The translations under genes were made by a program, and so were the position numbers. 64,000 nucleotides of DNA. Source: Candidatus Latescibacterota bacterium. GTDB taxonomy: Bacteria; Latescibacterota; UBA2968; UBA8231. Where the stretch lies: positions 1,152,001 through 1,216,000 of the forward strand of contig CBDETK010000013.1 of NCBI GenBank assembly GCA_965242865.1, written 5' to 3'. The notes below the pieces were generated by a model. The model was given only the letters and a program-made list of their open reading frames with translations. It ran no database searches and was not told where the DNA came from. Within the stretch, counting starts at the first letter, position 1, and every line of letters begins with the position of its first letter. Below, piece by piece: positions 3,294 through 64,000 of this stretch.

Positions 3294-5168
3294 TTAGCCA
3301 TCTTTGGCCTCACTTGGATCATCTTCTCCCGACATGCGCTGTGCCTTTAGTTGGGCTCCCGCTTCTGTAATGACATACTGCTGGTTCGACGCCCGGGGTT
3401 TCTCCGGGTTGGTCATTTCCACAATCCCGGACTTAATCAGCGGATCGAGGTAGCGTTTCTTGAAATAACCCCGATTGGTTATGCCAAGAGCTTCCAGAAT
3501 ATCGCCCAGCCGACGAGGCACATCGCATAAGTCTATGATTTTCCAGTGAATTGCAGACAACGCTGTCAAAGGAAAAACTTGTGCAGTGGACAAGTCATTG
3601 GAATGTCCCTCAACTTGTGCAGTGGACAAGTCGGGCGGCTTGGGCTGAACTTGTACAGAGACCAAGTCCTCGCCTCGTGTATCAGCTTGCTCAGTTTGGC
3701 GAAATCGATCCTCCAGATGCTCAGCCAAGGCGTACTCTCTGCCAGCTTCGACAATTCTGAAAAGCACTTTTGTGACCAAGACATCGGCTAGTTCCCTCGC
3801 AGCCGGTCCTGCAAGACCTGTTACGGCCTTGACCTGCGAAAGCGTGATTACCTGTTCTCGGCAGCCAAATGCAAATACCCTTGCCTGTTCGTCGGTGAGT
3901 TGTACGCCGAGGCTTGCCTGAAAAAGAATCTGCTGCTCCGACAGAAGTTCTTCTTTTTTTAGGATAAGCTCAAAGCACTTGTGTCTCTTGATGTTGGCAA
4001 TCGCGGGCGGAACATAGCCCAACTCCTGCCAGTTGCGAAAGACATCGCGCAGTCCCCATCCGGCATTCTCGCTCAGCCCGATGCGCCGGAAAGCAGTCAC
4101 GATTCGGGGATTGCGAACCTCCTTTTCACCGGGTTCGAGTAGGTCAGCATCGGTGGCGAAGGCATCGCCGGGATTCCAGAAAACGGTCTGGTCCGTATAG
4201 TGACGGATACTCGCCTTGCGAGAATGATCGGAGTAATCTTGGTGGATGAGCAGGTTGACCATTGATTCGCGAAAAGCGCGGTAGTCCGGCGGCGTATCAT
4301 CTCGCTGCAGAGATGTGGGATCAACTCGGAATGGCACTTCAGCGAATCTCTGGTACCAATCAACAAGGGACTGCCAAGTGCGAATGAGATTCTCGTCGAG
4401 CACAAGTCGATCATTCCAGCGTTCACCAGCATCGGCCCTGTCGCGATCCCGCGCAAATCGCTGACAATCCACTACAGGACGTGGCAAGAGTTGCCGGAAG
4501 GCTGCATTGGTGCCAAACAAAAAAATCGCTGCACGAGATGGATATACCTGGCCGTTCTGTTCAACAAGCAAACCCATCTCGTTGAGGAAGTCCGCGTCGG
4601 ATAGTTTTACGTAGGATCGGTTCCCCGGCCGTCCTTCATAAGTCTCCCGGTACCACTTAATGCTCTCCCTGTCGAGTGCCGTACTCAGGTTAAGATCGAC
4701 GGATTGGCCGTCATAGCGCTCCGCTGCCGCGTCCATGAGAAATCGATTCCGTTCGTTGTCCGAGCAGCGAATGTCGCTTCCTCCGCTGCGAACAAACGAG
4801 CGGCGAATATCCCCGTTCAGGAAGACGGGCTTGTCCGAACGATGCGCTTCAGGCACATAGAAGACAAGCAGGTCCGAGTCGTCGTACTTGTGCAGTTCCT
4901 CCCGAACATCCATCACCACGCTTATCTTGTCGGGTTGCCGCAACGCAGTCAGAAACTCGCTCTGAACTTTATCGACCTCGAGAACGCCAACGACCTCCAT
5001 GTCCTGCCCGCTCTTCTTGACGCCGAACACAAGGTGACCGCCCTCGGTGTTTGCAAAGGCAGACACCGTCTCATAAGCATTTCGCGGCACGGCGCGTTGC
5101 GCTTCCTTGAACTCAACATCGCGCCATTCGTGCGCGTTGAGTAGTTCTATCAGTTCATCCTGCGTCAT
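3294..5168 (-). CDS. AlbA_2 (Schlafen-like) domain protein with a RecG-C/HATPase-like middle domain and a C-terminal wHTH
   Basis: EWRDVEFKEA...ETVSAFANTEGGHLVFGV (AlbA_2), RESMVNLLIHQDY, RNPRI...ENAGWG, and C-terminal YLDPLIKSG...PEKPRASNQQY. GC is lower than in the flanks. Confidence 0.85.
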   Translation of the reverse strand: MTQDELIELLNAHEWRDVEFKEAQRAVPRNAYETVSAFANTEGGHLVFGVKKSGQDMEVVGVLEVDKVQSEFLTALRQPDKISVVMDVREELHKYDDSDLLVFYVPEAHRSDKPVFLNGDIRRSFVRSGGSDIRCSDNERNRFLMDAAAERYDGQSVDLNLSTALDRESIKWYRETYEGRPGNRSYVKLSDADFLNEMGLLVEQNGQVYPSRAAIFLFGTNAAFRQLLPRPVVDCQRFARDRDRADAGERWNDRLVLDENLIRTWQSLVDWYQRFAEVPFRVDPTSLQRDDTPPDYRAFRESMVNLLIHQDYSDHSRKASIRHYTDQTVFWNPGDAFATDADLLEPGEKEVRNPRIVTAFRRIGLSENAGWGLRDVFRNWQELGYVPPAIANIKRHKCFELILKKEELLSEQQILFQASLGVQLTDEQARVFAFGCREQVITLSQVKAVTGLAGPAARELADVLVTKVLFRIVEAGREYALAEHLEDRFRQTEQADTRGEDLVSVQVQPKPPDLSTAQVEGHSNDLSTAQVFPLTALSAIHWKIIDLCDVPRRLGDILEALGITNRGYFKKRYLDPLIKSGIVEMTNPEKPRASNQQYVITEAGAQLKAQRMSGEDDPSEAKDG

Positions 5169-8699: not shown

Positions 8700-9887
8700 C
8701 TACCAAGGAATAGCGTCGTACAGAAAGGCCGCGGCCGCGGCATGCGCCCGACTGTTGGGATGAAAATCCGTCGGATGGACCCAGTACTGCTGGGCGTCCT
8801 TGCCAGCGAAGAGCGGGAGCAGATCCACGGAGTGGATTCCCTCCTGCTGCGCCACGGCCTCGATAATTTCGTGTACCTCTGTTAGGGGATAGGCGTCGAG
8901 TTGGTAGAATAGAGGCCAGACGACCAAAGAGAATGCAATCCCCCTAGCCGCGCAGTAATCCTTCATCCAGCCGAGCAACTGCCGGGTCTGGGGCCAATGG
9001 GGGTTGTTGGTGTAGAGTTGTCGATACCACTCAGTGGTCTCGCGGGCGATCTGCTGCCGCTTCCAGCGCGTGGCAAACCAACGCAGGGTATAGCTATCCC
9101 ATCCCGCCAAAAATCGGACGGCATTCGATCTGGACCGCAAGCCTATAAAATTGTTAAATTCACCGTCCAACTCTAGACGACGCCCACCGTTCTCACCGTC
9201 CAACGCTAGACGACGCCCGCCGTTCTCACCTGTAAAACCTCCCAATTCTCTGCCCCACTTCTTCAGACGCCCCTGCTTAATTGGATCGTTTAGGACAAAC
9301 GAATACACGACGTGATCGACCCGAGCAAAGTACTCGACATAGTGTTCCATGGCCTCGGCGACCTCCCCGATATGCCTGCCCCCTTCACAGGCATTGAAGA
9401 TCCGATAGTGCTCGGCGGGGTGCTCCCGATTCAAGCGGGTCTCCAAGACATTCGAAAAGCGATCCACGACCCGCACTCCCGTACCAAAACAAAAGGAGTC
9501 GCCGACCAACAAGACGATTTTGTCTCTCTCCGCGTCGAACTCAGCCATGGGCCGCTCGCGCCGTCTCTTCTCGTTGCGGCACCACTCAATGGCATTGGGC
9601 ACTTTGCGCGGCGATAGATCGGCGAGGGCGGGATCGTCGTTCGCATTCGCCCTATAGGTCAATTCCCCCAACGGGTGTGCCCGCCGCAGATCCCAGTCGG
9701 GAGTACCCGCAAAGTGGTCGTCGTAGCACATCAGTCTAAGGCTTGGATCGTTCGTCTGGTAGATGACCATGGGATAGATCGGATCGGCCCGAGCGACGAG
9801 CCAAAAAGAGATTTCAACGACGAGCGCACTAACGGCCAAACTCGCAATGGCCAACAGCAGTTTACCGCCAATTGTGTCACGATTCAT
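8700..9887 (-). CDS. SGNH/GDSL hydrolase family membrane-anchored protein
   Basis: N-terminal TM helix, LVGDSFCFG block I and DFHPN block V. AAGGAGG RBS before ATG 9887. Confidence 0.8.
   Translation of the reverse strand: MNRDTIGGKLLLAIASLAVSALVVEISFWLVARADPIYPMVIYQTNDPSLRLMCYDDHFAGTPDWDLRRAHPLGELTYRANANDDPALADLSPRKVPNAIEWCRNEKRRRERPMAEFDAERDKIVLLVGDSFCFGTGVRVVDRFSNVLETRLNREHPAEHYRIFNACEGGRHIGEVAEAMEHYVEYFARVDHVVYSFVLNDPIKQGRLKKWGRELGGFTGENGGRRLALDGENGGRRLELDGEFNNFIGLRSRSNAVRFLAGWDSYTLRWFATRWKRQQIARETTEWYRQLYTNNPHWPQTRQLLGWMKDYCAARGIAFSLVVWPLFYQLDAYPLTEVHEIIEAVAQQEGIHSVDLLPLFAGKDAQQYWVHPTDFHPNSRAHAAAAAFLYDAIPW
9160..9230. repeat. In-frame 33-bp tandem duplication inside the SGNH gene
   Basis: Two near-identical units encoding GENGGRRL(A/E)LD. 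Confidence 0.85.
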
Positions 9888-27777: not shown

Positions 27778-29046
27778 CTAATCGTCGGGCGTTTGCCGAC
27801 TGACAACCTGCTGCTCCTGTTGCACGCGCTGGTACAAGCGCTGCCATTCCTTGGAGCCATCGTCCGCCAAAACCTCGGTGCGCACACCCTCCACATAAGT
27901 GCCCGGCGCGCTGAGGTTCTCCATGTACATGCAGGTGCCGTCCGGGTAGCAAACCGCGTTGATCAGCCGCGGCTGGGGGTGCGTGTAGGGCCGTCCCTGC
28001 CGGGCGTGTTCTTCGAGCTGCTCCGGCGGAACGCGGTATTGCTCAACCGCGGCCTCATCCACCTCGACGCCGAGGCCGGGGCTGTCGGGGACCCGCTGGT
28101 GCCCGTTGATCACCTCAACCGGCTCGGTCAGCAGATGGTGGCTGTACATATTGATACAGCTAATCGCCGGCCACCGGGCGTGGGTCAGCACCGCGCCGAG
28201 ATGGGCGTCCCAGGTGGTGGTCAACCCATTGCCGACGATCTGCAACCAAAACGGCATGGCCACTTCCGCGGCGCATTGCCCCTCGCGCATGGTCTGCGAT
28301 TTGCCGCCCCCAATCACAAAGCCGTCGCACACTTCTTCGCGCACCGCCGTGATCAGCGGCGGCGAACCAAAGTGCATGGCCACCGGCCGGTTGACCGCTC
28401 GGCGAATTTGGCGATTGCCGAGCAGGTCCGCCTGCGGGATGGGCGTTTCAAACATGGCCACGTTTTCGTAGCGTTCGAGCCGCTTCATGATCGGAATGGC
28501 GTTGGCCGCGTTTTCCCAAGAGCCGTTGGGGTCGAGGTCGAGATGAAAATGAGGGGGCACCACTTGGCAGATGGCTTCGACCTGCGCGACGATGTCGTTC
28601 CAAGGGCGCGGTTTGTTCTTGAGACTCGTGTAGCCATGCGCCACGGCCTCGGCGGCTTCGGCGGCCCAGTGTTCCGGTGAGGCGTGGCTACACCACCAAG
28701 AGATCGGCGTCCAGTCGCGCACTTTGGTGCCCAGCAGGCGATGCACCGGGACTTCGAGGATTTTGCCGACCACGTCAAACAGCGCCATCTGCAAACCAGC
28801 GCCCAAGCCGTCTTCGTGCATCAGCTCGGCCGGGCTTTGGCCGATGGTGCGCGCCACCGCATCATCGGTCACCCGGCCGTAAGTGTAGTGAACGACGGTT
28901 TCTCCCCAACCTACGTGGCCGGTGTCGGTGACGACCTTACACAGCTCTAGGATGGACCAGTTGTAAACCGACTGGCGAGTAATCTCCTGCTGTCTCGGCG
29001 TGAACGGAACATCGACGACAATGCGTTCGACATGGGTGACTTTCAT
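27778..29046 (-). CDS. Mandelate racemase/muconate lactonizing enzyme family protein
   Basis: TDTGHVGWGE, ALFDVVGK, KNK, LDPNGSW, FETP and PGLGVEVD. Confidence 0.88.
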   Translation of the reverse strand: MKVTHVERIVVDVPFTPRQQEITRQSVYNWSILELCKVVTDTGHVGWGETVVHYTYGRVTDDAVARTIGQSPAELMHEDGLGAGLQMALFDVVGKILEVPVHRLLGTKVRDWTPISWWCSHASPEHWAAEAAEAVAHGYTSLKNKPRPWNDIVAQVEAICQVVPPHFHLDLDPNGSWENAANAIPIMKRLERYENVAMFETPIPQADLLGNRQIRRAVNRPVAMHFGSPPLITAVREEVCDGFVIGGGKSQTMREGQCAAEVAMPFWLQIVGNGLTTTWDAHLGAVLTHARWPAISCINMYSHHLLTEPVEVINGHQRVPDSPGLGVEVDEAAVEQYRVPPEQLEEHARQGRPYTHPQPRLINAVCYPDGTCMYMENLSAPGTYVEGVRTEVLADDGSKEWQRLYQRVQQEQQVVSRQTPDD

Positions 29047-29147
29047 GGGGTCTCCTTTCGGCGGGGACGAAGTAGATAGGTGTTGAACGGCAGCGGACGC
29101 GGAGTTAAGATAATCTCCCCTTAACCAGCACGCTATATCTTATATAA

Positions 29148-29330
29148 ATGAAGAATAAGGCGCATAACCCGGCCGCTCGACGCCATTAACGCCGCGGCCG
29201 CGTGGGCGAGTACGCTGCATCTGTGGTGGGCGCGGCTGTTTGGCGCGCTGAAGCGGTTGCGGACGCGCCCAAGATGCCGCCCTTTAAGCAGGTGCGGGGA
29301 CGGTCGTTTCCCGGCAAGGTTTGAGGCGGG
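29148..29330 (+). repeat. Mosaic remnant: colinear fragments of the PIN, DUF1156 and PhyH genes
   Basis: 29148-29168 = 30664-30684 (21/21); 29172-29202 matches 31253-31283 (29/31); 29207-29236 = 31312-31341 (30/30); 29232-29324 matches 39751-39843 (82/93). Confidence 0.9.
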
Positions 29331-29427
29331 GCACTATACACTATCGAGCCTCTCATCATATTTTATATGATAAGCTAGAGGACAATCTACCAGCCCGTCC
29401 TAAGTTCTTTCCGACGCTGGGACCACA

Positions 29428-30300
29428 ATGATCTATTACCTACCAACCGTGCATAGTAACCGCCAAGGCTTCGAGAGCATCGGAGCCCTTGCCAAGGAGG
29501 CCGAAGATCTCTTTGCCGACCACCTAGAACTCAATATGTCTCGGGTGCGCTCTTTCGACGCCAACATGGCTGCCCCTTTGGGAGCGATTCTTGCCCAAGT
29601 GGCGGACCAATTCAACATCGTGGAGATCGTTGATATTCCCGACAAGGTGGAACAGGTGCTTCGGAAAAATCGGTTCTTAACCAATTATTGGTATGAACCT
29701 CTCGATGATGCTGACCACATAACGATGCCCTTTCGCCGCCTGCGCCTTAGGGATGAAGGCAAGTTCGAGCAATACATCTATCGGCAACTCAGCGGCAGAG
29801 GCATCCCCAAGATGTCTAAAGGAGCGAGCCGAGTTTTCAAAAAAAAGGTCTTTGAGGTTTATCAGAATGCCGTCACCCACTCCGAATCAGAACTCGGTGT
29901 TTTCGTCTGTGGCCAATTCTTCCTGCACCGGCATCGCCTCAACTTCACTATCGCCGATGCCGGTATCGGAATCCGCGATACCGTCCGCCGTTACTTCGAT
30001 CATCCCCGTATCGGTTCCCTCCCGGCTCTTGAATGGGCACTCGAGCCGCGTAACACCACGAAGTACGGCTCTCATCCCGGTGGGCTAGGTTTTGAATTTC
30101 TTCAGAAATTCGCCCGCCTCAATGAAGGGAAGATTCAGATCGCCTCTCGCTTCGGATTTTACGAGTTGAACTGCGACGGGGAAATCTTTGAGGAGATGGA
30201 GACGGATTTCCCCGGAACTGCCGTAACGATTGGGATCAATACGGCCGATGAGGGGGTCTATTTCTTGAAGAGTGAAATCGACACGGACAACGTGTCTTAA
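29428..30300 (+). CDS. GHKL/HATPase_c protein with an N-terminal STAS-like region (anti-sigma-kinase-like, no HisKA domain)
   Basis: N-box FEVYQNAVTHS, G1 IADAGIGI, G2 GGLG and FPGTAVTI. Confidence 0.8.
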   Translation: MIYYLPTVHSNRQGFESIGALAKEAEDLFADHLELNMSRVRSFDANMAAPLGAILAQVADQFNIVEIVDIPDKVEQVLRKNRFLTNYWYEPLDDADHITMPFRRLRLRDEGKFEQYIYRQLSGRGIPKMSKGASRVFKKKVFEVYQNAVTHSESELGVFVCGQFFLHRHRLNFTIADAGIGIRDTVRRYFDHPRIGSLPALEWALEPRNTTKYGSHPGGLGFEFLQKFARLNEGKIQIASRFGFYELNCDGEIFEEMETDFPGTAVTIGINTADEGVYFLKSEIDTDNVS

Positions 30301-30317
30301 TTAGAAAGGGTGAAAAC

Positions 30318-30674
30318 GTGACTGAACCAATTGCTGTGCAAGTGTTTGACCTCATCGGCGGTCCCCTGTGCGTATCCGCCAGCGATGGCCAGCGTCTGCA
30401 CGATAAGATCGCCCCTCTTTTAAGGAAGGAGACGCCAGTTGTCCTTTCCTTCAAGCGGGTGGACATCCTCATCTCCGCGTTTCTGAACGCGGCCATAGGC
30501 CAGCTCTACGGTGATCTGCCCGAGGATCGCCTTGATGAATTGCTTTCCTTCCGCGACTTGGCTGATGACGACCGCGAAATGATCACACACGTCATTGAAA
30601 ACGCCAAGGCGTATTTCAGCAGACCCGAGGACTTTGACCGGGCATGGCAGGAGGAACTAGGCGATGAAGAATAA
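30318..30674 (+). CDS. Stand-alone STAS-like protein (DUF4325-type)
   Basis: DGQRLHDKI...VVLSFKRVDILISAFLNAAIGQLY. Confidence 0.8.
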   Translation: MTEPIAVQVFDLIGGPLCVSASDGQRLHDKIAPLLRKETPVVLSFKRVDILISAFLNAAIGQLYGDLPEDRLDELLSFRDLADDDREMITHVIENAKAYFSRPEDFDRAWQEELGDEE

Positions 30675-31218
30675 GGCGCATAACTTGGCGACCTATTCGT
30701 TCAGCAAGGACGAAACTCTCCTACTCGATGCCAACGTGTGGCTCTACCTGTATCCACCACCATCCCAAAAAATCAAGCGCAAATTCATCCAGCAATACAG
30801 CAAGGGGTTAGGATCCATGCGGTCCGCAGATGCACAATTGATCATGGACGCTATGGTGCTCGGTGAATACTTGAACACCTACTGCCGCATTGAATGGAAG
30901 GCCCTGCACCAGAGCCAGTATCCTAAATTCAAATCATTCCGCAAATCGGCGGATTTCAAGGAGGTTGGCAAAAAAGCGGCCTCCTTTGCAGGCTCCATGC
31001 TCAAGCTCTGTGCCTGCCACGATCATCCTTTTGCTGCGGCCAATATCAAGCAAGTGCTGGCTGATTTTGCAGCGGGGACAACTGATTTCAACGATGGCTT
31101 GCTGGCCGAAACATGTCGCCACAATGGCTGGAAGCTGGTTACGCATGACGGCGATTTCACGTCTGGCGGCATTGAGGTCTTGACCACAAACTCGCGCCTC
31201 TTGTCCGCCTGCCCATGA
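30664..31218 (+). CDS. PIN-domain ribonuclease
   Basis: [17 protein letters not shown] and LVTHDGDF acidic catalytic residues. Overlaps the STAS gene. Confidence 0.85.
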
Positions 31219-32920
31219 CGCCTCCCCGCAAAAAGCTCATCGAAGTCGCCCTGCCGCTCGACGCTATCAACGCCGCGGCCGCGCGGGAGAAGTCGATTCG
31301 GCATGGGCATCCGAGTACGCTGCATCTGTGGTGGGCGCGGCGGCCGTTGGCTGCGGCGCGGGCGGTGATTTTCGCGCAGATGGTGGATGACCCGTCGGCC
31401 AGCCCCGAGCGGTTCCCTACGGAGGCCGACCAAGACGAGGAGCGCGAGCGGCTGTTTCGCCTTATCGAGGAATTGGTACAGTGGGAGAACACCACGGACG
31501 AACGGGTGTTGCAGCAAGCCCGCGACGAGATTTGGGCGAGCTGGCAACGGACCTGCGCCGACCACGCCGCTCACCCCCGGGCCGCTGAATTGTTCCGCCC
31601 GGATGCGCTGCCGGCCTTTCACGATCCGTTTGCCGGCGGCGGCGCGTTGCCGCTCGAAGCGCAGCGATTGGGGCTGGAAGCCCATGCCAGCGACCTCAAT
31701 CCGGTGGCGGTGCTCATCAACAAGGCCATGATCGAGATACCGCCTAAGTTCGCCGGTCAGCCCCCGGTGAATCCGGCGTCTCGCGGAGAAAAGGGCCTGA
31801 TCGAGCATACATGGAAGGGGGCGCAGGGGCTGGCCGAGGATGTGCGCTACTATGGGCAGTGGATGCGCGACGAAGCCGAGCGGCGCATTGGGCCTTTGTA
31901 TCCGCAGGTCGAGATTACCGAGGAGCTGGTGCGGCAGCGGCCCGACCTTGAACGCTACAAGGGGCGCAAGCTGACGGTGATTGCGTGGCTGTGGGCGCGG
32001 ACCGTGAAAAGCCCCAACCCGGCGTTTGCCGATGTGGAGGTGCCGCTGGCCTCGACCTTTATGCTTTCGACGAAGAAGGGCAAGGAAGCCTACGTGGAGC
32101 CGGTGATTGAGGGGCGTGGGTATCGGTTTGTGGTGAAGGTGGGACAGCCGGAGGATGTGGACGCGGCCAAGGCGGGGACTAGCGCGGGAAAACGGCAGGC
32201 GTTCCGTTGCCTGATGTCGGGTGTCCCTATTCCCTATGGCTATATCCGAAATGAGGGCAAGGCTAAACGGATGGGCGAGCGGCTTATGGCTATCGTTGCC
32301 GAGGGCGACCGGGGACGGGTGTATCTGGCACCACTGCCGGAGCACGAGGAGATTGCCCGTCAAGCGAAGCCGACGTGGAAGCCGGATTGTGAGCTGCCAA
32401 AGAAGCACCGCAACTTTCAGGGGCCTGTTTATGGATTGAACAATTTGGGCGACCTCTTCACGCCCCGCCAACTCGTCGCCCTGACCACCTTCTCCGACTT
32501 AGTAGCGGAAGCAATGGAGCGCGTCAAGCGGGATGCTGCCAACGCCAGTTTGCCGAATGACGACCGGCCCCTGCGCGACGGGGGCACCGGCGCGACAGCG
32601 TATGCCGAGGCGGTGGGAGTGTATTTGGGATTGTGTGTAAGCAGGCAAGCCAATCGGTCGTCCAACCTAAATTTCTGGGATCCGGTCGGAGCAAACATTC
32701 AGCAGGTATTTGCTAGACAAGCCCTGCCAATGATCTGGGATTTCATTGAATCCAATCCATTTTCTAACTCCAGTGGAAATTTCACAGGCCAAGTTGGTTA
32801 TCTCAGCAAAGTAGTCTCCTCATCACCCAGTTACGCCAACGTAGCTACGGCGTCTCAAAAGGATGCCGCCACTCAATCAACCAGTACAGACAAAGTCATT
32901 TCCACCGATCCCCCCTACTA

Positions 32921-33808
32921 ACTAATGGTGCTAGTGTTTTACAATCCGAACTCGGCGATAGACAACGGGACGAATCCGTTTTCATCGGGTTGGAATCCAT
33001 GCCACTGCACCCGCAGATTGAAGGCGGCCATGGCAAAGCTCAGATGGGCGGTGAAATACGCCCACGCTCGATGGGTCTGCTGCTTAAAGCGGCGGGTTCG
33101 GGTGAGCATGGAAAAGATCGTCTCAATGAGCATCCGCTCGTTCCAAGTGTTCCGGGGACACACTTTCAGATTGGCCGGATCGCCCGCTTGGGCATGAAAG
33201 CCCTGGTCGCTGAGGACGATCATCTGCTGTTGGAAGCGTCGGATCATCGGATGAAAGACCGAATCGTGGACTTATGCCGTGTTCCAATCCCAATCGACGA
33301 TCCGCCCCCACTGATTGACGATCATACACAGCTTGCCGCCGACGATCCAACGGTGGTTGGAGAGCCCTTTCTTCCCAATGGCGTGCTGCGCCCGGCCTTG
33401 ACGCACCGGATGGCGCAACTCAATGCCATAGCTGTCGACCACTCCCAAGGTCGTCAGCTCGGCGCGGAAGCGGTCGGTCCACTCGGCATGAGCGGCGAAG
33501 AGGCGAAACAAGCGGGGGCGCGATGGTAGGCGCGGGAACCAAGCCTGCCAGTCCCGCACCAGCCAGCGGTAAAATGCCCGTTTACCCCCGCCTTTGAGCG
33601 CATACAACACCCCTAAGGTGACCACCTCACTCGGATATAAGGACGCTTGCGGGTGTTTGGGCACATCAAGCATCTGATTGTCAATGCGGTAGAACAGGGC
33701 TATTATAAACTCGGCCGTGGTCATCAGGACGCTCCGGGGCTGAAAGGTCAGAGATACCCTCAGCGTAGGAACTACCATGACCACGGTCAACATACTAGCA
33801 CCATTGGT
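32921..33808 (-). mobile_element. 888-bp IS982-like insertion sequence
   Basis: Terminal inverted repeats AC(T/C)AATGGTGCTAGT (14/15 match) and a 5-bp target duplication TACTA at 32916-32920 and 33809-33813. Confidence 0.88.
32939..33724 (-). pseudogene. DDE transposase with an in-frame TAA at 33272-33274
   Basis: LYPSEVVTL, VVDSYGI, NTA*VHD, LSDQGF and RMLIETIFS. Both ORF-track pieces are in the same frame. Confidence 0.82.
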
Positions 33809-34486
33809 TACTACGACAACATCGGCTACGCCGATCTGTCGGATTTCTTCTACGTCTGGCTTCGCCGCGCGGTACGGTCGGTGTTCCCCGATCTTTTTTC
33901 CACCCTCGCCGTACCGAAGGCCGAAGAATTGGTCGCTACTCCACACCGGCATGGTAATAAGAAAAAGGCAGAGGCCTTCTTTCTTGACGGGATGACGGAC
34001 GCCGTGCGCCGCCTTGCCGAGCAAACGCACCCCGGCTTCCCGGTGTCCATCTATTACGCTTTCAAGCAATCGGAGACGAAAGGGGCGACGGGAACGACCA
34101 GCATCGACTGGGAGACCTTCCTCGATTCAGTCATCCGCGCCGGCTTCTCAGTCACCGGCACTTGGCCGATGCGTACCGAACAGGAGTACCCAACTGTCAG
34201 GCTCGGGGCAAACGCCCTCGCCTCTTCCATCGTCCTCGTCTGTCGCCAGCGCCCTGCCACCGCGCCAATAGCCACTCGCGGCGAATTCGTCGCCGCGCTA
34301 AGAGCCGAACTCCCCACCGCCCTCGCCCACCTACAATCCAGCAACATCGCCCAAGCCGCCATCGGCCCCGGCATAGCAGTATTCACCCGCTACGCCAAGG
34401 TGCTCAACGCCGAGGGCAAACCCGTCTCGGTGCGCGAGGCCCTAGCACTCATCAACCAGATACTATCGGAAACCTTCATATCAATC

Positions 34487-34786
34487 ATGGTGGACCGCAT
34501 CGCGAGAGCCTTCCAGCCTGCGCGGGTCGTCCTCTTTGGGTCTCACGCACGGGGCACGGCAACCGAATGGAGCGACATTGACTTGCTCGTAATTCTGCCC
34601 AAGGTGTCCGACAAACGGAACGCGGCAATCGAAATCCGCCGGGCCTTGGGCGATCTACCAGTTTGCAAGGACATCGTGGTAGCGACGCCCGCGGAAGTCG
34701 CTCGCCGTGGGCACCTTGTGGGAACCACGTTGCGTTCAGCACTCCGCGAAGGGAAGGTTCTTTACGAACGACATGAACGACCCTGA
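34487..34786 (+). CDS. Minimal nucleotidyltransferase (MNT) antitoxin, in frame with the methylase remnant
   Basis: [10 protein letters not shown]...SDIDLLV and REGKVLYE. Confidence 0.85.
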
Positions 34787-35132
34787 ACTCGTCGGCGAAG
34801 CGCGCCGCTGGCTTCGTTTCGCGGCGGAGGATCTCGATGCTGCACAATGCTTGCTGGCGACGGACGGGGCAGCCCCTCGTCACGCCTGTTTCCACGCCCA
34901 ACAAGCGGCCGAAAAGGCACTGAAGGCCGCACTGGTACTTGAGGGAGTCGACTTTCCGCGCCAACACGACCTCGATGACTTGCGTAACCTGCTCCTGGAC
35001 ACTTGGTCGGTGCGACAAACCCACACCGATCTTGCTCAATTGACGGAATGGGCCGTTGAGTCACGGTATCCAGGCGATTGTCAAGAGCCCACAGCTACCG
35101 ATGCCGAACAGGCGGCTTGTATCTCGGAGTGA
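34773..35132 (+). CDS. HEPN-domain protein (MNT-HEPN toxin-antitoxin pair), C-terminus possibly clipped
   Basis: [30 protein letters not shown] and SRYP. Confidence 0.88.
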
Positions 35133-39042: not shown

Positions 39043-39843
39043 GTGATCGAACAAAGCCCGACCCGTCGCCGGCTCACCCCGGCCCAAGTGGAGCGCTTCC
39101 GCCTCGACGGCTGTCTGACCATGGAGAATGTGCTGACCTTGGACGAAGTGGCCGTTTTGGCCGACCATGCCGACCGCATCGCCGCCGGCGCGCTAGACCA
39201 CATCCCGGACGCCAGCATCCAGCTCGAACCCGTCTTCCGCCGCGGCGAAAAAGCCGTGACCGACCGCGTGTTGGCCGTGCGCAAGTTGTACAACTTGGCG
39301 GTGTATGACGAGGTGATGTGGGCTTGCGTCACCCACCCCAAAATCGCCGACATGGCCGCCGACTTGCTCGGCACCGACGATCTCAAGCTGTACGGCGACC
39401 AGCTCTTTATGAAGGCTCCGCGCACCGGTTCGGCGCAGGGCTGGCACCAAGATTCGGCCTCTTGGCGCGACATTTTCCCCATGGACTTAGTCACCGCTTG
39501 GATCGCCCTCGACGAGGCCACCCTCGACAACGGCTGCCTCAACTTTGCGCTAGGCACTCACCGCTGGGGCATGGTGCGGGGCGAGCGTTTGGCTCCTTTT
39601 GTCGCTGATCTGGCAAGCGGCGAGTGGCCCATCCGGCCCGCTCCCCTCCGCCCCGGCAGCATCAGTTTCCACCACAGCCTGACGCTGCACCAGAGCAACG
39701 CCAACCGCACCGCCACGCGCCGCCGAGGCTATGCCATACACTACATGCGCGCGGCTTCTTGGCGCGACGAAGCGGTTACAGACGCGCCCAAGATGCCGTC
39801 CTTTAAGCAGGTGCGAGGGCGGTCGTTTGCCGGCAGGGTTTGA
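39043..39843 (+). CDS. Phytanoyl-CoA dioxygenase (PhyH) family Fe/2OG dioxygenase
   Basis: DQLFMK, WHQD, TAWIALDEAT..NGCL and LHQSNAN...RR. Confidence 0.9.
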   Translation: MIEQSPTRRRLTPAQVERFRLDGCLTMENVLTLDEVAVLADHADRIAAGALDHIPDASIQLEPVFRRGEKAVTDRVLAVRKLYNLAVYDEVMWACVTHPKIADMAADLLGTDDLKLYGDQLFMKAPRTGSAQGWHQDSASWRDIFPMDLVTAWIALDEATLDNGCLNFALGTHRWGMVRGERLAPFVADLASGEWPIRPAPLRPGSISFHHSLTLHQSNANRTATRRRGYAIHYMRAASWRDEAVTDAPKMPSFKQVRGRSFAGRV

Positions 39844-39879
39844 GACGGGCGAAGTGTGATAAAAAGAACAACGACGTAA

Positions 39880-58588: not shown

Positions 58589-59113
58589 CTACACGACACC
58601 CGAGACCAGCCGGCCAAAGATCGAGGTTTTCCCGTAGCTCTTAGTGACCGCATTGTTGGATGTTTGCCGCTTCCACACAATCTCGTTGCGAAAATTCTTC
58701 GCCCCGAAGATCACGTCCATCACCCCCTTGATGTAATGGATCGCCATCGGGTCGCAGTGGAAGTAGATGCTGCCGTTATCCTTGAGCACCCGACGGAACT
58801 CAATCAGGCGCACCGAGAGAAAGCACAGGAACGCACCGAGGTTCTCGCTGTGCGTGTGCATCGCCGCTTCAATGACTTCGACGATGGCGCGGTTGGAGTC
58901 CTTGATCTGCTCCATCCACGGGCCGTGGATTTTCTCGACCCAAAACCACTGGTCGGAATACTGGCCGCCGACAGCCTCGCGGTTACGGCCCGTGTTGAAC
59001 GGCAGGTCCATGGCGATCAGGTCGATGATGGACGAGTTCATGCCGCGCAAGGCCAGCAGGTTGTCCATGTGGAAGCCGGTGCCGGGAGTGACGTTGAAGT
59101 TAGGTTGGGTCAT
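58589..59113 (-). pseudogene. N-terminal fragment of an N4/N6 DNA methyltransferase (beta class)
   Basis: DNL..L, DLIAMDLPFN (DPPF degenerate), RRVLKDNGSIYFHCD and NFRNEIVWKR. The ORF ends before the SAM-binding motif. Confidence 0.8.
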
Positions 59114-59151
59114 TGGGACGCCCCTTTCGAGAAAGAGGATTATATGGAGGA

Positions 59152-59919
59152 TTAGTGTTTGACAATCTCAACAAAGACCCCGAGTGTTTTCTCATTGTCA
59201 TCTCGTATCTTTTCTGGGTCTCTTATTGTCCCCAAATCATAGATGACAAATAGAACACGAGGCCACCTTTGCCGATAACCATGAATATCGGCACTTATTT
59301 CTTCTTGGATTTTCGGGGCTCCGTGCCCACCTTTTGCGAGCTTCACTTCAATCGCCATCCCTTCGCCCTCAACAACAAAATCGGGCTTAAAGGCTTTTTC
59401 GCCTACTGGACTAGTCTCTTTTTCTCTTGTATAAGAGACTCCTATGGTTGTCAATATGGCCTCAACAGCATCTTGAACTTTTTTCTCTTCACTGGGCTCA
59501 TTTTCAATAAAATGGGTTCGTAATGCTCGCTTTATGGCCGCCCTAATCTCCATGCCCTCCATGGGATTAGAAAAGTCCATGCTAGGGTCTTGCTGGATTA
59601 GTTGATAGAAACCGATGGCCCTATCTACGCAATCTATCACAGCTTTGGCTATTGCGGTGCTGGCGATGCCCTGAAAAAGATTGTCAAAGGGATCATAGTT
59701 CCCTGCGTAAACTTGACCTTCAAGGTGACAAAGAGGTATCTCCACACCGGCTCTATTGACAGCTTCTTTTGTAGGAACCAGCAACCTGTTGACCCGACGC
59801 CGAAGCCTCTCCTCGTTACTTGGGTCCCCTCCCTTAATAAGGAGTTCTTCTAAATTTCTCAGAAAATCCTCAAGAAGATCAATGCGCTTACCTATGTCTT
59901 CTTTTGTTAATTTGTTCAC
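59152..59919 (-). CDS. Hypothetical protein with a C-terminal PD-(D/E)XK (REase DpnII/MboI-like) nuclease domain
   Basis: E..VQDAVEAIL, FKPDFVV...IEVK, ADIHGY and LFVIYD. GAAAGGAG RBS before GTG 59919. Confidence 0.78.
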   Translation of the reverse strand: MNKLTKEDIGKRIDLLEDFLRNLEELLIKGGDPSNEERLRRRVNRLLVPTKEAVNRAGVEIPLCHLEGQVYAGNYDPFDNLFQGIASTAIAKAVIDCVDRAIGFYQLIQQDPSMDFSNPMEGMEIRAAIKRALRTHFIENEPSEEKKVQDAVEAILTTIGVSYTREKETSPVGEKAFKPDFVVEGEGMAIEVKLAKGGHGAPKIQEEISADIHGYRQRWPRVLFVIYDLGTIRDPEKIRDDNEKTLGVFVEIVKH

Positions 59920-59940
59920 CGTCTTTCTCCTTTCTAGTTG

Positions 59941-60010
59941 ATAATTCCCCCGCGGCACAAAGCCGGCCAAGTTGCCAGCAGTGCGCCGCGGGGGATGAGG
60001 GATCTTTTTA
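59941..60010 (-). repeat. Intergenic hairpin element E1
   Basis: Minus strand: TAAAAAGATCCCTCATCCCCCGCGGCGCACTGCTGGCAACTTGGCCGGCTTTGTGCCGCGGGGGA. Confidence 0.85.
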
Positions 60011-60337
60011 CTCCTTGTCCTCGACGAAAAGCAGAAAGCTCACATGTACAGCACCTATGCAATCCAACGTACCTAGGGTGTTGCGTCCACTAGGTATTCC
60101 GCTTAATGTGCCAGTGATATGCACCTTCGTCCTCGCCGATAGACGCCGTATTGTCCGAGCCGGAATTTTGCTGCCTAGCAAAATGGAAATCTCGGACGGA
60201 TCTAACTTATCCGAATCCGAAGATTTCCATTTTATTGTACCAGCAAAAAGATCACCTGAGCCATCGGAGTCTACTTTGATCTTTTTGAGAGCGTCGCCGA
60301 TGACGTCGTTGATTACCGCCAGACTGAGTGTCTCCAT
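60008..60337 (-). CDS. Hypothetical protein (109 aa)
   Basis: The ORF fills the space between E2 and E1, with AGGA before ATG 60337. No recognised family. Confidence 0.55.
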   Translation of the reverse strand: METLSLAVINDVIGDALKKIKVDSDGSGDLFAGTIKWKSSDSDKLDPSEISILLGSKIPARTIRRLSARTKVHITGTLSGIPSGRNTLGTLDCIGAVHVSFLLFVEDKE

Positions 60338-60358
60338 CTTGATCCTACTTGAGTAAGC

Positions 60359-60422
60359 GTCCCCCGGCACGAAGCCAGCCAAGTTGCTAGTACCGCACCG
60401 CGAGGGAATGAGTGAGCTTTTA
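60359..60422 (-). repeat. Intergenic hairpin element E2
   Basis: Minus strand: TAAAAGCTCACTCATTCCCTCGCGGTGCGGTACTAGCAACTTGGCTGGCTTCGTGCCGGGGGA, homologous to E1. Confidence 0.85.
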
Positions 60423-60857
60423 GTCCCCTTCTTTGACAGTTACCTTAACTGTCTTAGGTAGCGACGGCTCAAACACCGTAGGGTCTGCGGGATAAGCAGT
60501 TACAGAGAAAGAAATATCTCTCGAACTTCCCATCTCTATCGGAATGGTTACCCGAAGGTACGTTGAGGATGTTATATCTATAACATGTGCGTCCTCTGCG
60601 ACCAGCGAATACTCTTTTGCATAGGGAACTGGAGACCAATTAAAGCGAAATAATACATATAAAATTTCACCTTCTCGCCTAGGTTCCGTTCCACATGACC
60701 CCAAAAAGGCGACATCCGCGGGCGAACATATCTCTTTACGCGGTATCTCATATTCCACGCTAAGCCGTTGTGGGGTGTCTATTCTTCTCTTCTCAGTTTT
60801 CGTCGGACTAGAGCAAGCAGCAAGAGCAAGCAGCAAGAGCAAGCTCGTGATCTTCAT
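60420..60857 (-). CDS. Lipoprotein, possible Fn3-like beta-sandwich
   Basis: MKITSLLLLLALAAC lipobox and FNWSPVPYAKEYSL...FSVTAY. GAAAGGAG RBS. Confidence 0.75.
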   Translation of the reverse strand: MKITSLLLLLALAACSSPTKTEKRRIDTPQRLSVEYEIPRKEICSPADVAFLGSCGTEPRREGEILYVLFRFNWSPVPYAKEYSLVAEDAHVIDITSSTYLRVTIPIEMGSSRDISFSVTAYPADPTVFEPSLPKTVKVTVKEGD

Positions 60858-60887
60858 GGGGTTCTCCTTTCTGGGATAGTAAAGTGA

Positions 60888-60926
60888 ATTTCGCGGCACC
60901 CAAGCGACACCGCGAGGTTGGGATTA
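60888..60926 (-). repeat. Short variant hairpin element E3
   Basis: Minus strand: TAATCCCAACCTCGCGGTGTCGCTTGGGTGCCGCGAAA. It shares CCTCGCGGTG, CTTGG and GTGCCGCG with E1/E2. Confidence 0.6.
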
Positions 60927-61103
60927 CTGCTGTTTCCGCAGCTCAACCGTGCATTCGACGCTACACGTCAACACGCCGTCCATGGACGCCTTCCGCACGT
61001 TCGGGATGTTCTCGTCGCAAATCACGTAGCGCAGAGGCTGCTAGAACGGCCGCCGAATCCTGAGATCAATATCGCCTTCTTGCCGCCCGCCTTTGTTGAT
61101 CAT
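60924..61103 (-). pseudogene. Small degenerate ORF (60 codons with an internal TAG)
   Basis: AGAAAGGA RBS, then MINKGGRQEGDIDLRIRRPF*QPLRYVICDENIPNVRKASMDGVLTCSVECTVELRKQQ*. The final TAA abuts E3. Confidence 0.4.
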
Positions 61104-61139
61104 AGAGCGTATCCTTTCTGTGGGCATCTTGCCCTCGCC

Positions 61140-61219
61140 GAGGGCTGGACGCCCTCGATCCCGGATGCAGCGAGAACACCAGAAAAGGCATACTCAAAGC
61201 AAGTGTCGCGTACTTAGGT
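61140..61219. repeat. Dispersed REP/MITE-like element, copy C
   Basis: GAGGGCTGGACGCCCTCGATCCCGGATGC...AAAGCAAGTGTCGCGTACTTAGGT, homologous to 2060-2112. Confidence 0.75.
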
Positions 61220-61230
61220 AGAGTCCCTTC

Positions 61231-61728
61231 TCAGCCGAGAAAAGCATTCGGTTCACTGTCCGGCTCTCGCGCCTTGATCCTTTGATCCTTTGTCCAGATG
61301 TGTACTCGCCATGTTGGGCCTTTATACCTCGTCTTGCGGAGATGGTTAGCCTCGTCGATGAGAATGGTGTCAACAAGGCTGATTCCTTTTTCAGGGGAGT
61401 ATCGAACAAAACCCTCTAGGAGTCCCTTTACTGCGTCCTCGTTAATTGCTGGCAATAGACTCCAAGGTTGGCCTTCGCGGATGCTAGTGAACACGACATC
61501 CCTGAGATCCACCGATAGCTTCCTGCGTGATCTACTCTCTGGTATATCGGCGATGTGGCCTGCCAGTTCAAAGATAGTCGGCAGGCTAACGTACAGTCTC
61601 GCCTTAGCCTCTACCGCTACGGCAAAACGTCTTTTTACCTCGGAGATTGCTTCCTCTGTGGAATAGCGGGGCACGGCAAAAAGCTCGCAGAGATAACTCG
61701 TATCGATCACGTAAACAGGAATGGCCAT
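61231..61728 (-). CDS. PIN-like domain protein
   Basis: VIDTSYL, IFELAGH, SLVD and IWTKDQRIK. TAATG coupling to the upstream ATPase. Confidence 0.75.
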   Translation of the reverse strand: MAIPVYVIDTSYLCELFAVPRYSTEEAISEVKRRFAVAVEAKARLYVSLPTIFELAGHIADIPESRSRRKLSVDLRDVVFTSIREGQPWSLLPAINEDAVKGLLEGFVRYSPEKGISLVDTILIDEANHLRKTRYKGPTWRVHIWTKDQRIKAREPDSEPNAFLG

Positions 61729-62954
61729 TACGACAAGCTCTCCAGCCAAGCCAGCACCTTTTTCTGACGCTGCTCCTCAAATTCTGGAGCCAGATACTGA
61801 TCGATAACTCGGCGCGTCACGAGATCGCCAAGACGACCGCGCTCTAGGAACTCATCGTATCGGGGCAGTTCGTCGAGCCGAACTAGGGTGGCACTCTTAT
61901 TCTCGGCGTCCCAAGTGCATACGACCACTCCGTCTAGCTGTTCTCGCGTGAGGAAGTTCATAGTGGCTGGATTGTGCGTGGTTACTAAAACCTGCAAACG
62001 ACGATTCTTGGCGATTTCGGCAATCGCCTTAGTGAGTACCCCAACTCGACTGGGATGCAGTCCGTTATCAAATTCCTCAATGACGATACGAGAGCCTTTG
62101 GCGACCGTCTCAAACGCGGTGAGAATCGCCAGCGTTCGCAGAGTTCCATCGGACAGAACACGCGCATCAACCTTGTATCCCGAACGCTCCTGAAAGCCGA
62201 AAATCACGTCTCCCAAATCCGTTAGCGTGAAGTCGAAATTCTGGTATGGCTCGTCAGGCAACTGACGAATTTTCTCGAGGAGTCGCTGTAAAATCGCCTG
62301 CTGCTCGTCATCTCCCGTGCTGAGTCCATACAAAACGGCTGACAGATTGGACCCATTCCTCTTCAGAATGGTGTCGCCAACGCGCTCATAACTGTGCATT
62401 AGCTTGGGATCGGGATCAAAGACAAAAGACGCTTGTAGGTGCAACATGACGGTCTGTACGGCCTGAAGCCAGCTTTTGTGCGATGGATTATCCGAGGCGG
62501 CGAATTCTCGGTATTGCGACAGCATCGATCGAACCGTCAGATCGGGGGATATAGAATATAGCTGTTTAGGTTGGGTCTCATATAGCGTCCGGGCTCCAAC
62601 CTTGAGTTTCTCACCGATAATCTGCGGATGCGGTCGTGTACAGATTTCAACTTCGTACAGAAGCGAGTGTGACCGGCCTTCTAACTTTATACTTGCTGAA
62701 AAACCCAGTTGGAACCGATCTTTCCCCTCCCGGGCACAAGCCTGTAATCCGCCCCGTACTTCGAGGCCACCACTTCCCCTCCCAAGGTCGCTGATCTCGT
62801 AGAGCGGCTGACCGCGGGCGACGAAGGACAGCAGGTCGATGGCCTCAATGACATTGCTCTTTCCCGATCCGTTGGGGCCGATCAGCAGACTGAATGGTCT
62901 GAACAGATCAATGCGGGCGTCGGCGAATCCCTTGTAATTCCTTAGATGATGCAT
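61728..62954 (-). CDS. AAA_21/ABC-type ATPase (RecF/AbiEii-like)
   Basis: GPNGSGKSN, LSDGTLR, IEEFDNGLHP and VTTHNP. Confidence 0.9.
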   Translation of the reverse strand: MHHLRNYKGFADARIDLFRPFSLLIGPNGSGKSNVIEAIDLLSFVARGQPLYEISDLGRGSGGLEVRGGLQACAREGKDRFQLGFSASIKLEGRSHSLLYEVEICTRPHPQIIGEKLKVGARTLYETQPKQLYSISPDLTVRSMLSQYREFAASDNPSHKSWLQAVQTVMLHLQASFVFDPDPKLMHSYERVGDTILKRNGSNLSAVLYGLSTGDDEQQAILQRLLEKIRQLPDEPYQNFDFTLTDLGDVIFGFQERSGYKVDARVLSDGTLRTLAILTAFETVAKGSRIVIEEFDNGLHPSRVGVLTKAIAEIAKNRRLQVLVTTHNPATMNFLTREQLDGVVVCTWDAENKSATLVRLDELPRYDEFLERGRLGDLVTRRVIDQYLAPEFEEQRQKKVLAWLESLS

Positions 62955-63011
62955 GTAGTCGATCCTCTGAAATGTGCTTTTCTCCGCAACGGATCTTCCT
63001 GCGGTGCGGCC

Positions 63012-63620
63012 CTACCCGATTCCAAGCATCTTTGCGACGAATTGGGTTCGCGCATAGAAAGCTCGACTCGTGCTGCCGTGCCCGGCTCCCTTGGTTCGCG
63101 GCTGAACCAGCACCCCCATTCTGCCGGTTAGATGTTCAAACCCCTTGGTTGCAATGCAGCTTCTCACTTCTTCATAATCTTCCTTTACTTGCTCGTAATA
63201 CGCCGCGTTATTGAGATCAAAGGCCGATACGTGCATCAAAATAGATCGGTTCTCGTCTTGAGACTCGAATAATCTGGCGCAAATCACTGCTCTTTTCAGT
63301 TTTGTAAGCAAGTGGCTTTGTTCAAAGGGGGTACTTTTGACATTGACCGGATCGATCATTGTAATAGCCATCGTCTCCTTAACCCTGATGCGACCATCAG
63401 CAAGCCTTTTCAATGGGACAATTTTTAGTTCCCACGATCCGAAGTTAGGTGACTGCGCCGAATTGATGGGAAGCCCCAAGTACCTTTCAAGCAGATGACC
63501 GGCCCATCCTTTGTTCTTCTTATCCCCTATCCAAATGTTCACTTCATATTGAGCGGCGAGTGGAACCAAATCCCGTCCCTCTAGCAATTTCAGCTTGCTG
63601 ATTGCAGTTTCCCGTTCCAT
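63012..63620 (-). CDS. MutH/Sau3AI-family endonuclease
   Basis: NKGWAGHLLERYLG, PNF..WELK, KETMAIT, L.PRTKG and RAFYAR..F. Confidence 0.85.
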   Translation of the reverse strand: MERETAISKLKLLEGRDLVPLAAQYEVNIWIGDKKNKGWAGHLLERYLGLPINSAQSPNFGSWELKIVPLKRLADGRIRVKETMAITMIDPVNVKSTPFEQSHLLTKLKRAVICARLFESQDENRSILMHVSAFDLNNAAYYEQVKEDYEEVRSCIATKGFEHLTGRMGVLVQPRTKGAGHGSTSRAFYARTQFVAKMLGIG

Positions 63621-63631
63621 TGAGTATCTCC

Positions 63632-64000
63632 TCACGCAAAATCTAAGGACGAGTGCCGGTTATTTATCGAGTCCCTCAAGCGTTCTACGGACAGAGCGAT
63701 AAACTCCGGTTCGAGTTCGGTCCCCACGAATCTCCGTCCGAGATTCACGGCAGCTACGCCCGTGGTTGAACTGCCAGAAAAAGGATCGAAGATCAAGTCG
63801 CCCGCGTTTGTCGATGCCATGATGATCCGCTCTAGGAGCGCGATAGGCTTTTGGGTGGGGTGTTTGCCAAATTTCTTTTCTTTTTTGTTAGGAGGCTTAA
63901 ACGACCATACCGATTTCATCTGTTTGCCGTGGTTCAATTCCCGCATCTTGGCATAATTAAAACAGTGCTTTGACTTTTCGTTTTTAGCGGCCCAGATAAT
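63632..64000 (-). CDS. N4/N6 DNA methyltransferase (DpnA/MboIB-like beta class), 5' end outside the window
   Basis: FNY..M...N.GKQMKSVW, HPTQKP..LLERII and DPFSGSSTTG. Confidence 0.9.
   Translation of the reverse strand: MIWAAKNEKSKHCFNYAKMRELNHGKQMKSVWSFKPPNKKEKKFGKHPTQKPIALLERIIMASTNAGDLIFDPFSGSSTTGVAAVNLGRRFVGTELEPEFIALSVERLRDSINNRHSSLDFA

Follow-up and report, generated by a model that had tools for sequence, protein, structure and literature searches.

The stretch of DNA analysed here, referred to as the window, comprises 64,000 nucleotides (nt) of the genome of a Candidatus Latescibacterota bacterium (contig CBDETK010000013.1, positions 1,152,001 to 1,216,000 of the forward strand). 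Three adjacent genes at 29428-31218 of the window are a divergent copy of vapKSC, an operon for a kinase, a STAS-domain antitoxin and a PIN-domain toxin that was published by Chambers, Rani, Min, Villa and Corbett (bioRxiv preprint, February 2026; EMBO J, June 2026, PMC13373217). The system as such is not new. The trio is very probably a functional vapKSC module that works as published. Computational support for this comes from the homology of the proteins, the conservation of residues, the two-domain fold of VapK, the interface between VapS and VapC and the order of the genes. By analogy with the published system, the window copy would also be toxic, controlled by phosphorylation, triggered by single-stranded DNA (ssDNA) and protective against phage.

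The three genes are intact open reading frames (ORFs) on the + strand. The first, vapK (29428-30300), encodes a predicted STAS plus SpoIIAB-like GHKL Ser-kinase of 290 amino acids. The second, vapS (30318-30674), has a GTG start and encodes a protein of 118 amino acids, predicted to be a STAS-like (DUF4325) antitoxin, and the third, vapC (30664-31218), encodes a PIN-domain toxin of 184 amino acids, a predicted RNase. There is a gap of 17 nt between vapK and vapS, an overlap of 11 nt between vapS and vapC, and an overlap of 4 nt (31215-31218) between vapC and hmaB, the gene of a DUF1156 methylase. The GC content of the trio is 0.525 compared with 0.611 in the remaining window and 0.615 in the first part of hmaB, and vapKSC is single-copy in the genome. 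In the Pfam scan VapS matched DUF4325 ('STAS-like') with E 7e-15 and VapC matched PIN with E 1.7e-6. The matches of VapK were weak: residues 141-242 gave HATPase_c with E 9e-4, which falls short of the gathering score, and residues 20-79 gave STAS_2 with E 0.06. Both domains were recovered by fold search. HisKA was not found in the Pfam scan. The original prediction, made from the letters of the window, had described a tightly linked trio of lower GC content, consisting of a GHKL protein with a STAS-like N-terminus and no HisKA, a stand-alone STAS-like protein with a Ser in ILISAFL, and a PIN protein that keeps its acidic residues and whose stop overlaps the start of a DUF1156 methylase gene, all intact beside decayed downstream neighbours. 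This description is borne out in all its parts.

In the published operon VapK is a CapK-like kinase with STAS and GHKL domains, VapS is a STAS domain extended by a short stretch at its C-terminus, and VapC is a VapC-like PIN protein (PMC13373217). The VapC of Escherichia sp. E4736 is toxic and the toxicity is lost in D28A. VapS neutralises VapC and forms with it a 2:2 complex in the crystal (PDB 9z7o), where the conserved S48 of VapS is buried in the interface and the C-terminus of VapS lies near the active site of VapC; a Ser or Thr is absolutely conserved in the STAS domain of VapS. The phosphomimetic substitution S48E abolishes both neutralisation and binding of VapC, and deletion of residues 94-116 of VapS abolishes neutralisation. 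E. coli that carries the Escherichia operon is protected from phage Bas42 by about 2 logs, an effect that VapC D28A, VapS S48A and VapK F54A each remove. According to the proposal of the authors, DNA damage activates VapK, and the phosphorylated Ser of VapS frees VapC. The published instances are 289 vapKSC operons in IMG, of which 36% lie at most 10 kb from a defence gene recognised by PADLOC (PMC13373217). A literature search found the name VapKSC in this paper and its preprint alone.

When VapS and VapC of the window were searched against 177,635 distinct PDB sequences, the best match of each was a chain of this same crystal structure. VapS matched 9z7o_A ('Escherichia VapS') with E 7.8e-10 over residues 9-107. 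In the alignment, S53 of the window VapS in DILISAFLNAAIGQL stands opposite the Ser in the Escherichia sequence KMFASPFFNYSIGQL, which is chain residue 66 of 9z7o_A. This residue would be S48 if the chain of 134 residues bears a tag of 18 residues, an offset derived from the chain length. S53, which is the Ser of ILISAFL, as well as F55, L56 and N57 are invariant in 28 of 28 aligned homologues. The C-terminal region is conserved (Y99, F100) and has an acidic tail at its end. VapC matched 9z7o_C ('Escherichia VapC') with E 1.8e-9 over residues 6-180, and weak matches were obtained with NCBIfam VapC models. D22 of the window VapC is aligned to Asp 28 of 9z7o_C, and D22, E68, D144 and D162 are invariant in all of the 27 homologues.

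A complex of VapC and VapS was predicted with a score of 0.90, against 0.00 for the best of three controls; of 157 solved complexes 116 reach the mark applied to this score, as do 2 of 215 mismatched pairs. At least 95% of the contacts were common to the runs, and the predicted local distance difference test (pLDDT) of the partner was at least 91. The predicted interface includes residues 50-55 of VapS, S53 among them, and residues 102-114, in agreement with the crystal structure as described in PMC13373217. For this pair, the modelling that had been suggested together with the original prediction as a check on it was favourable at the level of a predicted structure.

The AlphaFold2 (AF2) model of VapK, based on an alignment of 28 rows, has a mean pLDDT of 88.9. 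It was compared with 48,161 representative chains with VIA-align. Residues 96-275 resemble SpoIIAB (1l0o_A; Z 12.9, root-mean-square deviation (rmsd) 2.7, 136 of 141 residues aligned) and, with Z 9.0, RsbW (6m36_A), and residues 1-89 resemble a STAS anti-sigma antagonist (1sbo_A; Z 9.8, rmsd 2.1, 87 residues aligned). The STAS domain is accordingly placed at about 1-90 and the GHKL Ser-kinase domain at about 96-275. The top ranks of a Foldseek search with the same model were noisy (multi-domain kinases, Hsp90/TopoVI), and SpoIIAB was distinct by the target-normalised TM alone (0.63-0.67). The ATP-binding residues are E143 and N147 of the N box, D177, G179 and G181, and G218-G221, and E143, N147, D177, G181, G218, G219 and G221 are invariant in 28 of 28 sequences. 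Two Phe residues of the STAS domain are candidate counterparts of Escherichia F54, as judged from the alignments: F83, invariant in both alignments (15 and 28 rows), and F43, conserved to at least 90% in 15 rows and below that level in 28 rows.

With tblastn, VapK was found to be 31% identical (E 3e-44, 99% coverage) to an 'ATP-binding protein' of plasmid P5 of Deinococcus gobiensis I-0. The gene of this kinase is followed by genes for a 'STAS-like domain-containing protein' and a 'PIN domain-containing protein', and Dataset EV3 of PMC13373217 includes D. gobiensis I-0 among the hosts of vapKSC. The window trio shares with Escherichia VapKSC the set and order of its three genes, a kinase with STAS and GHKL domains, the Ser of VapS (S53 here, S48 there) and the first Asp of the PIN domain of VapC (D22 here, D28 there). 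It differs in that its proteins are distant from those of Escherichia and belong to an uncultured host, and in that the operon is joined to an Hma methylase gene by the 4-nt overlap.

If the window copy works as published, VapC (PIN RNase) would in the resting state be inactive in a complex with VapS, which would grip it with its C-terminal region and with the STAS domain, whose S53 would lie in the interface. DNA damage or phage infection would give rise to ssDNA, VapK would then phosphorylate S53 of VapS, and the phosphorylated VapS would release VapC, leading to cleavage of RNA and a stop of growth. The original prediction had a kinase-STAS switch gating a PIN toxin in defence, and this agrees with VapKSC, where it is in part shown and in part proposed (PMC13373217). 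The match to VapKSC therefore supports the mechanism first suggested but takes away its novelty; a match to a system already described had been named with the prediction as an outcome that would refute it, and such a precedent had not been excluded. The part that stood is the partner-switch logic; the published trigger, DNA damage and ssDNA, was absent from the prediction.

Several points weigh against VapKSC identity and function. The similarity to Escherichia VapS and VapC is distant (E ~1e-9 to 1e-10), and the predicted complex may in part be due to a resemblance to the solved structure 9z7o. The sequence profile of VapK gave no GHKL chain in PDB, the best match being the unrelated KtrA with E 0.004, and the link to SpoIIAB was made by the fold search alone, the HATPase_c match in Pfam being sub-gathering. 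The conserved F54 of Escherichia, a proposed ssDNA contact, has no more than candidate counterparts in the window VapK. The tie of D. gobiensis to Dataset EV3 is at the level of the strain and not of the IMG gene number. Phosphorylation of VapS by VapK and the activation by ssDNA were deduced in PMC13373217 from CapK/CapS and AlphaFold 3 models, because VapK was insoluble. A scan of 28900-31400 gave no sigma-70-like promoter on the + strand and no terminator, but such a scan says little in this phylum. Contamination is estimated at 6.8% for the genome, a metagenome-assembled genome (MAG).

PADLOC 2.0.0 and NCBIfam 20.0 are without a model for the trio. VapS was unmatched, VapK gave a weak match to a DrmA region and, in NCBIfam, a weak match to 'anti-sigma F factor' (E 0.0018, far under the cut-off), and the matches of VapC were below threshold. 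The missing model is due to the dates of the libraries and is no argument against a role in defence. The VapKSC publication is later than the PADLOC release used (2023), and the NCBIfam release of June 2026 is also without a model. Because these libraries lack VapKSC, automatic annotation gives the generic labels 'ATP-binding protein', 'STAS-like' and 'PIN'.

A word-indexed search with VapK gave 545 relatives at E <= 1e-3, and the 120 listed are 277-343 amino acids long, nearly all about 290. A profile search of 1.84 billion cluster representatives gave 744 at E <= 1e-30. Related loci were obtained by scanning one genome of each species for a pattern, and 32 of the 298 pattern matches encode a relative. 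These loci, which carry L numbers in the following, span at least 10 phylum-level labels, with titles that include Latescibacterota, Rhodothermales, Gemmatimonadota, Planctomycetales, Acidobacteriota, Elusimicrobia, Spirochaetia, Verrucomicrobiaceae, Cryosericum and Methylomonas as well as others. They were fetched through the kinase alone, and the order kinase-STAS-PIN is found in 32 of 32. The linkage of the trio is therefore not a matter of chance, and the three genes are conserved together as had been anticipated. All three genes are full length in 27 of the 32 loci, and truncated or broken copies are found in L002, L021, L023, L024 and L029. The GC content of the trio is lower than that of the flanks in every one of the loci, by 7.3 points on average. 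Within the phylum a strong VapK match (E <= 1e-60) was obtained for 14 of 168 genomes, that of the window (G000) included, and a further 19 genomes match the GHKL domain alone with E ~1e-11 to 1e-13. Strong matches were found in 5 of 30 other genomes of the same genus.

Two distant VapK-like matches were found in a phage collection. A VapK-like 'ATPase-like protein' with 28% identity (E 2e-16) is encoded by Streptococcus prophage Javan172 (L054, 2893-4171). The gene is followed by one encoding 114 amino acids, no PIN protein is annotated, and the position is between lysogeny regulators and the integrase. The pair may be CapKS-like or a variant without PIN.

The vapKSC cassette is a mobile module which in this clade usually lies inside Hma or type I restriction-modification (RM) operons. 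The loci were recovered through one VapK subclade and the frequencies of embedding are biased. PADLOC was applied at E <= 1e-5 to 105 flanking ORFs, at most two per side, from 28 loci (L007, L013, L014 and L028 were left out), and at least one defence family was identified in 22 of the 28. HmaA, an SNF2 helicase-nuclease, is encoded directly upstream of vapK in 12 of the tested loci (L004, L005, L006, L009, L012, L015, L016, L019, L020, L022, L024 and L031). An HmaB-like ORF was found downstream with phmmer in 15 of the 32 loci. In L012 and L031 hmaA, vapKSC and hmaB are all full-length ORFs. L030 and L032 have type I HsdS upstream and HsdR downstream, and L027 has a type IIG enzyme downstream. 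Six loci (L008, L011, L017, L018, L025 and L029) had no PADLOC match in the flanking ORFs tested. Despite this null result L029 has an HmaB-like ORF according to phmmer, and the Pfam flanks of the other five are metabolic (DUF3604, PfkB, BipA, PhyH).

The cassette is tightly joined to its neighbours in part of the loci. In 13 of the 32 loci, among them nine with hmaA and both with hsdS, the gene upstream shares its last 4 nt with the start of vapK. At the other end, the window and seven loci have the start of the longest hmaB ORF 4 nt ahead of the vapC stop. The pairwise identities of VapK and HmaA are correlated with a Spearman coefficient of 0.49 (45 non-independent pairs) and those of VapK and HmaB with 0.37 (78 non-independent pairs). 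Two MAGs labelled Planctomycetales (L012 and L013) are 99% identical in HmaA, 84% in VapK and 44% in HmaB. This contrast points to recombination by modules within hmaA-vapKSC-hmaB loci, with a swap of the methylase (specificity) module. The moderate co-variation is compatible both with movement of the composite as a single unit and with separate movement of its parts.

This embedding allows a more specific reading, compatible with VapKSC membership, which is possible at a tentative level: vapKSC of this clade could be a co-translated, built-in abortive-infection back-up of Hma or type I RM that is triggered by ssDNA. The signal would be ssDNA from the action of the HmaA helicase-nuclease or HsdR on phage DNA, or the blockage of that system by the phage or its failure. 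The window would then represent an end state, an orphan toxin-antitoxin layer surviving a decayed restriction layer. The neighbours HmaA, HmaB, HsdS and HsdR, the 4-nt overlaps at both ends of the cassette and the co-variation of VapK with HmaA are in favour of such a layer, and coordination of a front line with a back-up has been proposed for CapKS (PMC13373217). The six loci without PADLOC-matched flanks, five of them with metabolic neighbours, speak against it, as do the weak tie between HmaB and VapK identities, illustrated by L012 and L013, and the biased recovery from one subclade. Moreover, the Escherichia operon is protective alone (PMC13373217), and the hmaA-hmaB gap is a hotspot for insertions in general (Septu, PARIS, Ppl), which occur in 66.5% of hma systems (PMC11232893).

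In relatives of the window trio vapKSC occupies the same position as the defence genes of the hmaA-hmaB gap described in PMC11232893. PIN endoRNases are among the auxiliary or back-up effectors of BREX and BREX-related loci (bioRxiv 10.1101/2025.10.09.681413). The effectors named in the two texts are Septu, PARIS, Ppl, HEPN, Schlafen and OLD-ABC+PIN (PMC11232893; 10.1101/2025.10.09.681413), whereas the cassette of kinase, STAS and PIN left no trace in the main texts by the words searched. STAS, GHKL and HATPase have no occurrence in the main text of bioRxiv 10.1101/2025.10.09.681413. STAS and PIN have none in the main text of PMC11232893, where 'kinase' occurs once in an unrelated sense.

That the trio is a pure addiction module, which kills by post-segregational killing, gives no protection against phage and has a kinase that answers a stress other than ssDNA, is improbable. 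Such a module would agree with the intact state of the trio beside a decayed hmaB, with the patchy distribution over the phylum and the genus and with the GC content below that of the flanks in all loci. It is contradicted by the protection against Bas42 in Escherichia, which needs VapC D28, VapS S48 and VapK F54 (PMC13373217), and by the defence families beside most of the tested loci. Broken copies occur in five of the 32 loci, and loss is therefore tolerated.

CapK/CapS is the closest paralogous system and is located upstream of immune operons, beside R-M systems in 88 of 443 cases (PMC13373217). CapK is a kinase with a helix-turn-helix (HTH), a STAS and a GHKL domain, and its ssDNA-dependent phosphorylation is shown in vitro; CapS is a DNA-binding repressor with a STAS domain and a winged helix-turn-helix (wHTH) (PMC13373217). 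The window trio has in common with this system the GHKL kinase with STAS and the STAS partner with a conserved Ser, and vapC overlaps the start of hmaB. The trio could on these grounds be a transcriptional switch of hmaB or of the Hma operon with PIN as a mere passenger, an explanation of very low probability. The output of CapS is transcription and not release of a toxin. VapS of the window, with 118 amino acids, has no wHTH and has Escherichia VapS as its best match, VapK begins with the STAS domain at residue 1 and has no N-terminal HTH, PIN is present in all 32 loci with conserved catalytic residues, and VapS is confidently predicted to bind VapC. A switch of the CapKS type was rejected on the absence of both HTH domains and the constant presence of PIN.

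A classical sigma-factor partner switch of the SpoIIAB/SpoIIAA or RsbW/RsbV type shares with the trio the kinase fold, as seen in the Z scores for SpoIIAB and RsbW and the weak 'anti-sigma F factor' match, and a STAS substrate in which a helix begins with a Ser (PMC13373217). This reading is extremely improbable: VapK bears a STAS domain of its own unlike SpoIIAB, the conserved third gene encodes a PIN nuclease, which would be the partner released, the operon shows no phosphatase gene, and no sigma factor is among the Pfam and PADLOC matches of the tested flanks, in which a search aimed at sigma families was not made.

VapKSC resembles VapBC of type II in having a VapC-like PIN toxin bound by a small protein encoded upstream, with overlapping genes. 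The window antitoxin is, however, a STAS-like DUF4325 protein and not a DNA-binding VapB (AbrB, RHH, PHD, HTH). Furthermore, VapS leaves the Mg2+ in the active site of VapC in place, and release in VapKSC takes place by phosphorylation and not by proteolysis of the antitoxin (PMC13373217). An earlier trace of the link between PIN and DUF4325 is the subfamily PIN.4 of Matelska et al. (NAR 2017, PMC5499597, Table 1); a kinase is not mentioned and a mechanism is not proposed there.

The gene downstream of vapKSC is hmaB, for the N6-adenine methylase (DUF1156) of a BREX-related system of the Hma type, centred on DUF499. An insertion sequence (IS) divides hmaB, and its 3' end is truncated. The 5' part (31215-32921, + strand) matches PADLOC HmaB with E 1e-272 at profile positions 8-577 of 967 and DUF1156 with E 8.5e-33, and the middle part (33800-34475, + strand) matches HmaB with E 1e-109 at positions 574-807 of 967. 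The IS of about 0.9 kb (32916-33813) is bounded by inverted repeats of 25 nt (32916-32940 and 33789-33813) and contains frameshifted remnants of a DDE transposase on the - strand, with a weak match to DDE_Tnp_1_3. The site is empty in L001, where position 9492 corresponds to 32920 of the window and 9488 to 33809. According to blastn against L001, hmaB lacks 548 bp of its 3' end (L001 10156-10703), and because of this deletion its frame runs into the following MntA-like gene. The MntA-like nucleotidyltransferase and a HEPN protein (34707-35132) constitute a second, unrelated toxin-antitoxin pair at 34490-35132 on the + strand, similar to type VII. The matches are NTP_transf_2 with E 8e-14, HEPN with E 3e-20 and NCBIfam MntA_antitoxin with E 1e-8, the last below the cut-off. 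L001 and L021 likewise have this pair, there after an hmaB that is intact.

No hmaA was found near the window trio, and the whole Hma set, with the helicase HmaA, the methylase HmaB and the DUF499 ATPase HmaC intact, is not present at this locus. The sole strong HmaA-like match in the genome lies 2.1 Mb off and has an internal stop, and DUF499 matches lie ~1.9-2.1 Mb off. A second Hma-like locus was observed at G000:C13 ~3.267-3.283 Mb (L034, L056), with an HmaA match of E 1.6e-160 that has one internal TAA and a DUF499 match ~12 kb from it.

Upstream of vapK there is a scar (29148-29330, + strand) made up of the 5' end of vapC, a 5' fragment of hmaB and a copy of the 3' end of a PhyH gene, with the direct repeats D7, D3, D5 and D1. 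In the first segment (29148-29236) the first seven codons of vapC, 92% identical to 30664-30689, are joined to an internally deleted hmaB 5' fragment. The second segment (29227-29330) is a copy of 104 nt, 88% identical to 39746-39849, which is the 3' end of the PhyH gene at 39043-39843. In congeners two PhyH genes are located directly upstream of vapK. A short hmaB 5' fragment stands directly before vapK in L001-L003, and the cassette is therefore flanked by hmaB 5' repeats in these loci. The scar and the position of PhyH in the congeners show that the window locus has been rearranged. Through this rearrangement vapKSC has remained intact, and it has outlived its decayed Hma neighbour.

Two further regions of the window were recorded. 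A defence-like cluster on the - strand at 58589-63635 contains an N6_N4 DNA methylase fragment, a restriction enzyme of DpnII/MboI type, an AAA_21 ATPase and a MutH-like nuclease. At 3294-5168, also on the - strand, a protein of 624 amino acids combines Schlafen AlbA_2, HATPase_c_4 and Fic-like C-terminal domains, an architecture often found in defence contexts.

What is new here is, first, a divergent VapKSC from a phylum whose name, like the word 'hma', is absent from the supplementary files of PMC13373217, including Dataset EV3 (file 8 aside). Second, with 744 cluster representatives the family is bigger than the 289 published instances (PMC13373217). Third, the fusion of vapKSC at the level of the operon with Hma and type I RM is recurrent. 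The fusion loci constitute a natural composite in which the idea of PMC13373217 can be tested that ssDNA-sensing kinase modules link front-line restriction to later abortive infection.

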